Shown here in pieces: positions 350-616 of a stretch of 64,000 bases of DNA (positions are counted from its first letter, which is position 1; the number at the start of each line of letters is the position of its first letter). Origin of the DNA: a virus; IMG/VR virus record IMGVR_UViG_3300034069_001154, positions 87 to 64,086 of that record; one strand, written 5' to 3'. The notes under the pieces were generated by a model that was not told the origin of the DNA, ran no database searches, and worked only from the letters and a program-made list of their open reading frames with translations. Both the position numbers and the translations under genes were made by a program.

Positions 350-616
350 AAAAATTAAACGACAGGGAGTTAATCATTCAAAAATGATTTCCTATGCGAC
401 TCCCTATCTCTACCAGTACCGTGCCGCACATGTGCCCAAAAACCCAAGAATGCGGTGCCTGACGTACATAGCTTACCTGTTTCGCTACAAGGGTATCCTA
501 GTATTAGATAATTTGAACTATAAAACTAGGCAAAATTCATTCATCCGATTTACCTCTTTCCCCTATCGGCTGTTGATAGGACATCTACTCCAGGACTTAC
601 GGAATCCTTTCTATTC
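350..616 (-). ncRNA. multi-copy structured ncRNA, copy A
   Basis: Shares GAATTTTG-helix-TTTTATAG, ACCC-TGTAGCG, AAGCTATGTACG-CAGG, CGGTACTGGTAGAG and a terminal stem plus U-tract with 4 other loci; own promoter at about 616-635; ends approximate. Confidence 0.75.

Follow-up and report, generated by a model that had tools for sequence, protein, structure and literature searches.

The window analyzed here is a 64.0-kb stretch of viral DNA, out of a 64.7-kb record of IMG/VR (IMGVR_UViG_3300034069_001154), and it carries five copies of a previously undescribed family of structured phage RNA, which we call R. The RNA contains an H-type pseudoknot, does not code for protein, and is linked to a family of endonuclease genes, E, that are present or absent at fixed junctions within conserved R arrays of related phages. 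Given that CheckV puts the completeness of the record at 19%, the window is a fragment of a phage genome of about 340 kb. Our reading of these data, which we consider probable and well short of certain, is that R genes are new, independently transcribed structured RNA genes, that E proteins are homing endonucleases inserting at R genes, and that the R RNAs act in trans in a way that depends on their fold.

A pseudoknotted RNA family in five copies

A first-pass annotation of the window had listed five copies of a non-coding RNA, each running from a phage promoter to a U-tract, and had proposed building a covariance model from them. We built this model, R1, which includes only helix P1, the GUAC/GUAC base of helix P3, and helix P4 with its inner hairpin. 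R1 finds all five copies where they had been placed and on the same strands, with scores of 148–194 bits (E 1e-40 to 1e-53); with the filters off, nothing in the rest of the window scores above 15 bits, so the window holds exactly five copies. Over 842 kb of unrelated phage and metagenome DNA, the maximum was 17 bits. Aligned with MAFFT, the five cores have a mean column identity of 62% and share the ordered blocks that had been noticed by eye: UUUUAU, ACCC, AGC-loop-GCU, AUGUACGCAGG, a variable hairpin, CGGUACUGGUAGAG, and the terminal stem. The outer limits given earlier describe units running from promoter to U-tract; the cores are narrower (about 190–280 nucleotides (nt), to which a 5′ domain of 40–110 nt is added), and the promoter-like motifs lie 40–110 nt upstream of them.

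To find relatives, we scanned IMG/VR and metagenome data with a 19-base degenerate pattern over the P2 region of the RNA, obtaining matches in two further IMG/VR contigs and at 68 metagenome loci. A looser two-block pattern had returned only chance matches from IMG/VR, confirmed as noise by R1, so that the stricter pattern was needed; four JGI loci that match the P2-region pattern are also chance matches that R1 does not recognize. In related DNA, the model built from five copies finds 181 R copies over 35 contigs (183 in a re-scan with nhmmer), including five near-complete genomes of 326–346 kb. They fall into at least eight subfamilies, and one 341-kb genome has at least 21 copies in the parts that were fetched; because the metagenome records were searched in part, copy numbers per genome are lower bounds. 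Neither BLASTN nor megablast matched the copy region or 9 kb of the window to deposited phages. When one genome for each prokaryote species was scanned, a single pattern match came up, in a Mycobacterium metagenome-assembled genome, which R1 did not confirm; thus we found no R in bacterial genomes and no prophage copies. A literature search found no description of the R RNA, although R could stand as a nameless entry in bulk lists of candidates (PMC10690425, PMC8040213).

The stems of R covary, as had been claimed for the five copies, and they do so in the larger set. Across 142 distinct members, 97.2% of cells in the model's 26 pairs are paired, compared to 83.4% after shuffling (none of 500 shuffles was as high) and 34–47% when the pairs are slid; the covariation score is 0.53, compared to 0.26 shuffled and 0.07–0.11 slid. 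Changes on both sides are seen in 21 of the 26 pairs. Helix P1 (helix 1 of the first-pass annotation) is 99.5% paired, with five of its six pairs changed on both sides. The compensatory changes reported among the five copies in helix 1 and the terminal stem are there as described, and so is the replacement of AGC/GCU by GGC/GCC in copy D. P4 covers three further model helices and has an invariant U.G pair at alignment columns 240/358.

Two helices lie outside the search model, P0 and P2, so that their covariation support is unbiased by the alignment. P2 has compensatory changes (UA97/CG12 and AU132/GC10). P0 is a new helix, in which the nucleotides just 5′ of P1 pair with those just 3′ of UUUUAU; all five column pairs tested show two-sided changes, and pair 4-23 is mostly a conserved G.A mismatch. 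Its variants include AUCGA/UAGAU, GGUCUU/GAGACC, GGACUU/AAGUCC, and GGUUA/UAACC. Because the strands of P0 and P1 interleave and each helix covaries, they form an H-type pseudoknot with U-rich loops. The first-pass annotation stopped at helix 1, whereas the RNA reaches further 5′, into P0 and into 5′ domains that are specific to subfamilies.

Between the helices lie nearly invariant unpaired blocks: UUUUAU, ACCC, the P2 loop, CAGG, GGUAGAG, and GUCGAAAGGA, the last forming a GAAA-capped arm of the three-way junction within P4. About half of the R copies have a 5′ domain with a loop-E-like internal loop (in copy A, as read from the sequence, GGAGUAGA opposite GGAAAG), and other subfamilies have different 5′ domains. 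Three further pairings were considered and set aside. A long-range pairing from RNAalifold, GCUA/URGU, shows no two-sided change, whereas the local P2 hairpin does, and P2 was kept; for the pairings seen by eye, of GUAGAG with UUUUAU and of ACC with GGU, the natural changes of U to C, or of G to A within UAGUAGAG, go uncompensated, and neither pairing is claimed.

The RNA strand and the non-coding nature of R follow from the same alignments. Paired cells contain 635 G.U and 31 A.C combinations, and this excess fixes the transcribed strand; the first-pass annotation had taken the G.U pairs to favor RNA over DNA structure. Core lengths are spread evenly over the residues modulo 3, and the longest open reading frames (ORFs), with a median of 29 amino acids (aa), are not conserved; by these measures, R copies are non-coding. 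A candidate conserved peptide in the 5′ domain of copies A and D was dropped, given that the short frame there shifts to another frame in other subfamilies.

Each R copy has the outline of a transcription unit. A promoter-like motif, W-Y-CCTTA followed after 3–5 nt by R-T-G, occurs 30 times in the window, compared to 5.4 times in shuffled sequences, and the same type of motif is found in more distant jumbo-phage contigs. It often lies 0–8 nt ahead of an ATG, its last bases often being the start codon itself, which suggests that these genes are leaderless or nearly so and have no Shine-Dalgarno sequence; examples across the window are at 321-333(-), 1494-1506(-), 14778-14790(+), 23197-23209(+), and 57284-57296(+). 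The motif precedes 147 of 161 RNA copies, and every copy ends in a 10-bp P4 stem followed by 6–9 U. Transcription would therefore be expected to run from the motif to the U-tract. A simple terminator scan calls none of these 3′ ends, because what P4 encloses is a three-way junction and not a short loop.

Some relatives contain two R units in one RNA. The unit at L175:1120-1610 (+), also present in contigs L149, L145, L160, L162, and L156, includes a short R unit that lacks the P3 hairpin (one GUAC is followed directly by the other), the three-way junction, and the U-tract; a linker hairpin joins it to a full R unit, and the whole has one promoter motif and one terminator.

R matches no known RNA family, in agreement with the by-eye verdict of the first-pass annotation. 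Against Rfam 15 (4227 models), the whole window at gathering score yields only a tRNA-Leu and two group I introns, none on R copies; nothing falls on the elements at E ≤ 10 for copies A–D, at E ≤ 0.1 for 47 kb of a relative holding 19 R copies, or at E ≤ 1 for the loci of the distant branch R′ described below. ARAGORN finds one tRNA in the window, tRNA-Leu at 6595-6681, no transfer-messenger RNA, and no tRNA over R copies in 36 related loci. Four likenesses noticed by eye were dropped for want of an Rfam match: to the thiamine pyrophosphate riboswitch ('CUGAGA..ACCC'), box C/D RNA ('UGAUGA..CUGA'), the sarcin-ricin loop (GUACGAGAGGA), and RNase P ('GGAAAG'). The letters concerned either belong to a covarying helix or are missing in other subfamilies.

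Endonuclease genes and a distant branch of the RNA

The two E genes of the window, E1 and E2, encode paralogs with 37% identity. Pfam domain DUF559 is found in 19 of 25 E paralogs, PDB entry 3HRL matches with E 4e-5, and the nuclease domain of PvuRts1I also matches. The motif EIDSxLHDxxYDxARD is nearly invariant; its key residues are all invariant and the S is kept in at least 90%. An AlphaFold2 model has a confidence (pLDDT) of 88, with which Foldseek gives weak nuclease-domain matches only. The nuclease domain of E proteins has a fold known from homing endonucleases; among phage homing enzymes, the EDxHD/Vsr-like type is represented by I-Bth0305I (PMC3239194).

E genes are closely tied to R genes, a linkage that the first-pass annotation did not see. 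The DNA fetched contains 77 E genes beside 181 R genes, and at nearly every locus E lies directly upstream of one to three R genes on the same strand. In the complete genomes that were mapped, E comes first and R last in most clusters; some of the fetched clusters start with R. The R array r1 r0 r? r7 r4 r3 is kept across genomes, while different E genes are present or absent at its fixed junctions: in some genomes E2 precedes r4 and E13 precedes r3, and in others the same junctions are empty. Comparing empty with occupied junctions reveals a clean cassette, consisting of a promoter motif of its own that abuts the ATG, followed by the ORF, whose stop codon (AAT CCT TAA) falls inside the promoter motif of the next R. 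Distances among E genes correlate with those among the downstream R genes (Mantel r 0.41, p 2e-4, 18 clades). Taken together, presence or absence at fixed junctions and co-divergence make the E genes look like free-standing homing endonucleases, with R genes as their landing pads; judged from these sequences, E genes appear to target R genes or to be duplicated together with them.

Just past the E1 stop codon, at 640..732 (-), we read in the sequence a truncated duplicate of the copy A promoter (motif 720-732) and of the first half of the copy A 5′ domain. It may be a scar, left by recombination or when a cassette inserted.

Searching with a profile for relatives of E, we reached a 362.7-kb phage contig, 92% complete, in which one E-like gene is followed by two units of about 250 nt. 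R1 does not detect these units, which we call R′; they nevertheless keep the order of parts seen in R. P0 again crosses P1 (UUAGCUAU/AUAGCUAA with CCUAU/AUAGG), and these are followed by AUACC-UUG, P2 with a AUAUAGGU loop, P3, an (U)AGUAG junction, P4 starting with GAUAGAAG, and a U-tract. R′ copies in three more jumbo-phage contigs show compensatory changes in P0, P1, and P3, bringing the branch to four contigs with one or two copies each. R′ adjoins an E-like gene in two of them and does not in L209 and L213, which are near-identical and probably come from one phage; in L210, R′ lies upstream rather than downstream of the E-like gene. The association with a nuclease recurs, and it is not obligatory. 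That the architecture is kept in R′, also with no E gene adjacent, indicates that R is an RNA gene in its own right, older than its expansion.

Other stretches near E-like genes were noted as well. Just upstream of the R′ copy at L210:1980-2220, R1 has a weak match at L210:1786-1951 (+) (17 bits, E 0.002), which may stem from a further R′ unit of greater divergence in that contig. In four more contigs, distant E-like genes adjoin ORF-free stretches of 150–230 nt that run from the same promoter-like motif to a hairpin and U-tract (L215:400-790, L216:2775-3020, L217:1060-1240, and L218:2850-3010). The R model does not recognize them; they may belong to other small-RNA families or be relatives of R that have diverged greatly.

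What the RNAs may do

In the explanation that we favor, R genes are residents in a clade of ~340-kb phages, where they form conserved arrays, and E genes, bringing their own promoter, would insert immediately upstream of certain R genes, at junctions that are fixed. E would cleave in or near R genes; repair by gene conversion would then likely produce both the high copy number of R and the co-divergence of E and R, in the manner of SegB in the tRNA cluster of T4/T6. The RNA would act in trans through its fold. Its compact fold, invariant junction nucleotides, independent units, and subfamilies with different arms, together with the lack of a guide-like segment, all point this way. Our best guess at the most likely role is protein binding: R may bind a phage or host protein, as a ribonucleoprotein scaffold or a decoy, and the variable arms would give its subfamilies different specificities.

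The T4/T6 tRNA cluster with SegB offers a close parallel: in a large virulent phage, small structured-RNA genes form an array, and genes of free-standing homing endonucleases sit among them; there, endonuclease-driven gene conversion or amplification of an RNA locus is documented (PMC2330249, PMC13096335). The differences are that R is not a tRNA, is three to four times longer and is pseudoknotted, that E is of the DUF559/Vsr type whereas SegB is a GIY-YIG enzyme, and that both families are far more expanded here, with no fewer than 21 genes per genome for the RNA and about 10 for the nuclease; that R arrays are likewise cleaved and amplified would follow from this analogy. Group I introns and homing endonucleases likewise bring a structured RNA and an endonuclease gene together in phage DNA, and collaborative homing of an intron with a free-standing nuclease is known for F-CphI (PMC6083498, PMC3984707). 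R copies, in contrast, are intergenic and extend from promoter motif to U-tract, with neither flanking exons nor a group I core; the group I model RF00028 matches the window only at 52464-52734 and 53407-53668.

Several observations weigh against the explanation that we favor. The minimum free energies of R are no better than those of shuffled sequences (z about -0.3); free energy is therefore uninformative, and the case for structure comes from comparison among sequences. In that comparison, the alignment for P1, P3, and P4 was fitted to the model, and the R sequences are related to one another, so that cell counts exceed the number of independent events. The ~340-kb genomes are themselves closely related, which means that conserved array order says little about how essential the RNA is. 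R and E are both missing from LR756500.1, the nearest huge phage among deposited ones, as would also be expected if R and E were one selfish unit. Finally, promoter, start site, and termination are deduced from the nucleotide sequence, and the terminator scan supports no 3′ end.

We give a lesser chance, and think it on the whole unlikely, that R is more than a passive landing pad: it would be either the RNA subunit of a new kind of mobile nuclease-RNA system, whose Vsr/DUF559-fold DNA endonuclease depends on, or is regulated by, a pseudoknotted RNA of ~250 nt, or a new class of medium-sized ribozyme that diversified into many paralogs in jumbo phages. To our knowledge, few complex-folded RNA classes of 200–300 nt are still without a described family. 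Orphan RNA classes that were followed up have proved to be guide scaffolds (HEARO), cages (ROOL, GOLLD), or ribozymes. Both possibilities are weighed below.

In the first, R would be the RNA partner of E, as its guide, scaffold, activator, or antitoxin, and the two would make up a mobile ribonucleoprotein element similar to HEARO/IscB; we regard this as improbable. The layout is suggestive: in most mapped clusters E is directly upstream of one to three same-strand R genes, no terminator intervenes from the E stop codon to the next R, E paralogs co-diverge with the downstream R, E-like genes adjoin R′ in two further lineages, and the nearest deposited relative lacks both partners. Yet R genes exceed E genes by 2.35 to 1, R-only units (copies C and D) carry their own promoter, E is present or absent at junctions within an otherwise conserved R array, and R′ occurs with no nearby E in L209 and L213 and upstream of E in L210. 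Nor do we see an unstructured, paralog-specific segment at either end of the RNA, as the 3′ end consists of the P4 stem with a U-tract and the 5′ domains have structure as well. Nucleases of the DUF559/Vsr type are, as far as is known, protein-guided. The nuclease scaffold suggested by the first-pass annotation meets the same evidence: it gains some support from the tight linkage of R to E, and it is weakened by R copies with no nuclease gene and by the turnover of E in a conserved R array.

The omega RNAs of HEARO/IscB and TnpB are the obvious comparison for such a partnership. HEARO was first found as an orphan RNA motif and later proved to be the omega RNA of IscB. R resembles these RNAs in being large, conserved, and multi-copy, and in its place beside a small nuclease ORF within an apparently mobile module. 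It differs in having no Rfam match to HEARO or to IS605-type RNAs and no evident guide segment; R copies exist without a nuclease, E comes and goes in a fixed RNA array, and E is a PD-(D/E)xK Vsr-like protein rather than a RuvC/HNH nuclease.

In the second, R would be a new, fairly large ribozyme (self-cleaving, self-processing, or otherwise catalytic) with its conserved junction nucleotides as the active site. The pseudoknotted fold is complex, about 40 unpaired or junction nucleotides are nearly invariant, and the GNRA tetraloop and loop-E-like module are typical of compact tertiary folds; moreover, the fused two-unit transcripts of relatives, which have no terminator between units, might need processing, and phage DNA often contains multiple copies of small self-cleaving ribozymes in the neighborhood of endonuclease genes. 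On the other side, no Rfam ribozyme model matches, we identified no conserved candidate cleavage site, and nearly every unit has its own promoter and U-tract, so that its release needs no processing. We consider a ribozyme rather improbable.

Large orphan phage RNAs and pRNA offer another comparison. GOLLD, ROOL, and the pRNA of phi29 are, like R, phage-encoded RNAs of complex fold made from separate transcription units. Their function depends on three-dimensional structure or multimer assembly, not on base-pairing with a target. R has no sequence or structure match to them in Rfam, is smaller than GOLLD and ROOL, has many diverged paralogs per genome, and is linked to endonucleases; its only multimer-like feature is the natural fusion of two units in one transcript.

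The remaining explanations give the RNA no role in trans. The repeats might act on DNA or transcription, as insulator cassettes of terminator and promoter and as recognition sites carried along with E, the RNA having no role of its own; each unit does end in a stem and U-tract followed by a promoter motif, and the units are tied to mobile nuclease genes. This is very unlikely, however, given that compensatory changes preserve P0, P1, P2, and P3, none of which a terminator needs, that the strong asymmetry of G.U over A.C points to selection on RNA, and that the architecture persists in R′, too diverged for the model to detect. Least credible of all is a cis-acting leader, a riboswitch or attenuator controlling the downstream gene through the terminal stem and U-tract: the order of promoter, structured domain, terminator-like stem, and gene would suit it, but the genes downstream are unrelated (an endonuclease, an IMPDH-like gene, an Hsp20 gene on the opposite strand, another R), the next gene carries its own promoter motif, and R units stand in tandem runs of two or three.

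Features of the window and what the system bears on

The positions of the R copies, with the parts of copy A as mapped from alignment columns, and of the two E genes are collected in the table. The first-pass annotation was right in calling R a structured, strand-specific, non-coding family; it missed the pseudoknot, the linkage to E, the presence of at least 21 copies in one genome, and the distant branch.

Positions of R copies, parts of copy A, and E genes in the window
Feature	Position	Strand	Details
RNA copy A, putative transcript	346..618	-	core 346-541, 5′ domain 542-618; R1 189 bits
Copy A promoter-like motif TTCCTTATATGTG	616..628	-	motif class enriched in window
Copy A, 5′ part of pseudoknot	516..541	-	P0 5′ strand 537-541, P1 5′ strand 525-530, UUUUAU 520-525, P0 3′ strand 516-520; from column mapping and P0/P1 covariation
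Copy A, P1 3′ strand (497-502) and nearly invariant ACCC (491-494)	491..502	-	
Copy A, P2 hairpin with conserved 11-nt loop G-R-U-A-N-A-G-G-U-R-A	468..488	-	compensatory changes
Copy A, P3: GUAC/GUAC base, CAGG internal loop, variable distal hairpin	416..467	-	3 of 4 pairs changed on both sides
Copy A, 3′ part	346..414	-	GGUAGAG 408-414; P4 closing stem with three-way junction 361-408; U-tract 346-360
RNA copy B and promoter motif	1518..1821	-	core 1518-1702, motif 1809-1821; R1 188 bits
RNA copy C and promoter motif	30679..30980	-	core 30679-30925, motif 30968-30980; R1 148 bits
RNA copy D and promoter motif	31006..31287	-	core 31006-31198, motif 31275-31287; R1 194 bits
RNA copy E and promoter motif	58071..58342	+	motif 58071-58083, core 58123-58342; R1 170 bits
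Endonuclease gene E1, 249 aa, DUF559/Vsr-like	743..1492	-	between copies B and A; own motif 1494-1506, ending one base before ATG
Endonuclease gene E2, 257 aa from motif-proximal ATG (putative start)	57296..58069	+	longer frame starts at 57233; Pfam DUF559; directly upstream of copy E

Other genes of the window were noted in passing. A DNA polymerase gene at 49971-54109 (+) is split by the two group I introns into exon pieces at 49971-52481, 52835-53431, and 53840 onwards, the middle one of which matches PHROG DNA polymerase families. At 7293-9458 (-), a 721-aa fusion joins a polynucleotide kinase-like P-loop domain, a metallophosphatase, and an RNA ligase of the T4 Rnl1 type in an RNA repair cassette; its closest relatives are from Fusobacterium, SPbeta-like, and Twort phages, with 35–43% identity. 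Two paralogs resembling IMPDH/GMP reductase each stand beside an R cluster, one at 32456-33550 (-), one gene away from copies D and C, and the other at 58400-59496 (+), immediately downstream of copy E. The window also encodes a protein quality-control set that is unusual for a phage fragment: an FtsH-like AAA protease (12623-14731), a ClpB-like disaggregase (43369-46038), a TelA-like protein (15541-16722), and Hsp20 (30109-30630), all on the + strand. A 724-aa protein of unknown function at 61047-63221 (+) belongs to PHROG 1735 (E 3e-191), and its best deposited relatives are in an uncultured 462-kb phage (49% identity) and in Cellulophaga phages (40–42%); these relatives hint at a Bacteroidota host, which the absence of Shine-Dalgarno sequences from the genes also suggests.

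The comparative support for R comes from more than 140 distinct sequences, at least eight subfamilies, and a second deep branch. For this group of phages, the promoter motif of leaderless genes and the models of R and E provide tools for annotation. Beyond this, the R/E system bears on how homing endonucleases shape and amplify arrays of phage RNA genes, on whether a nuclease of the Vsr fold can work with RNA, and on the purpose that 20 or more structured RNAs serve in a large uncultured phage.

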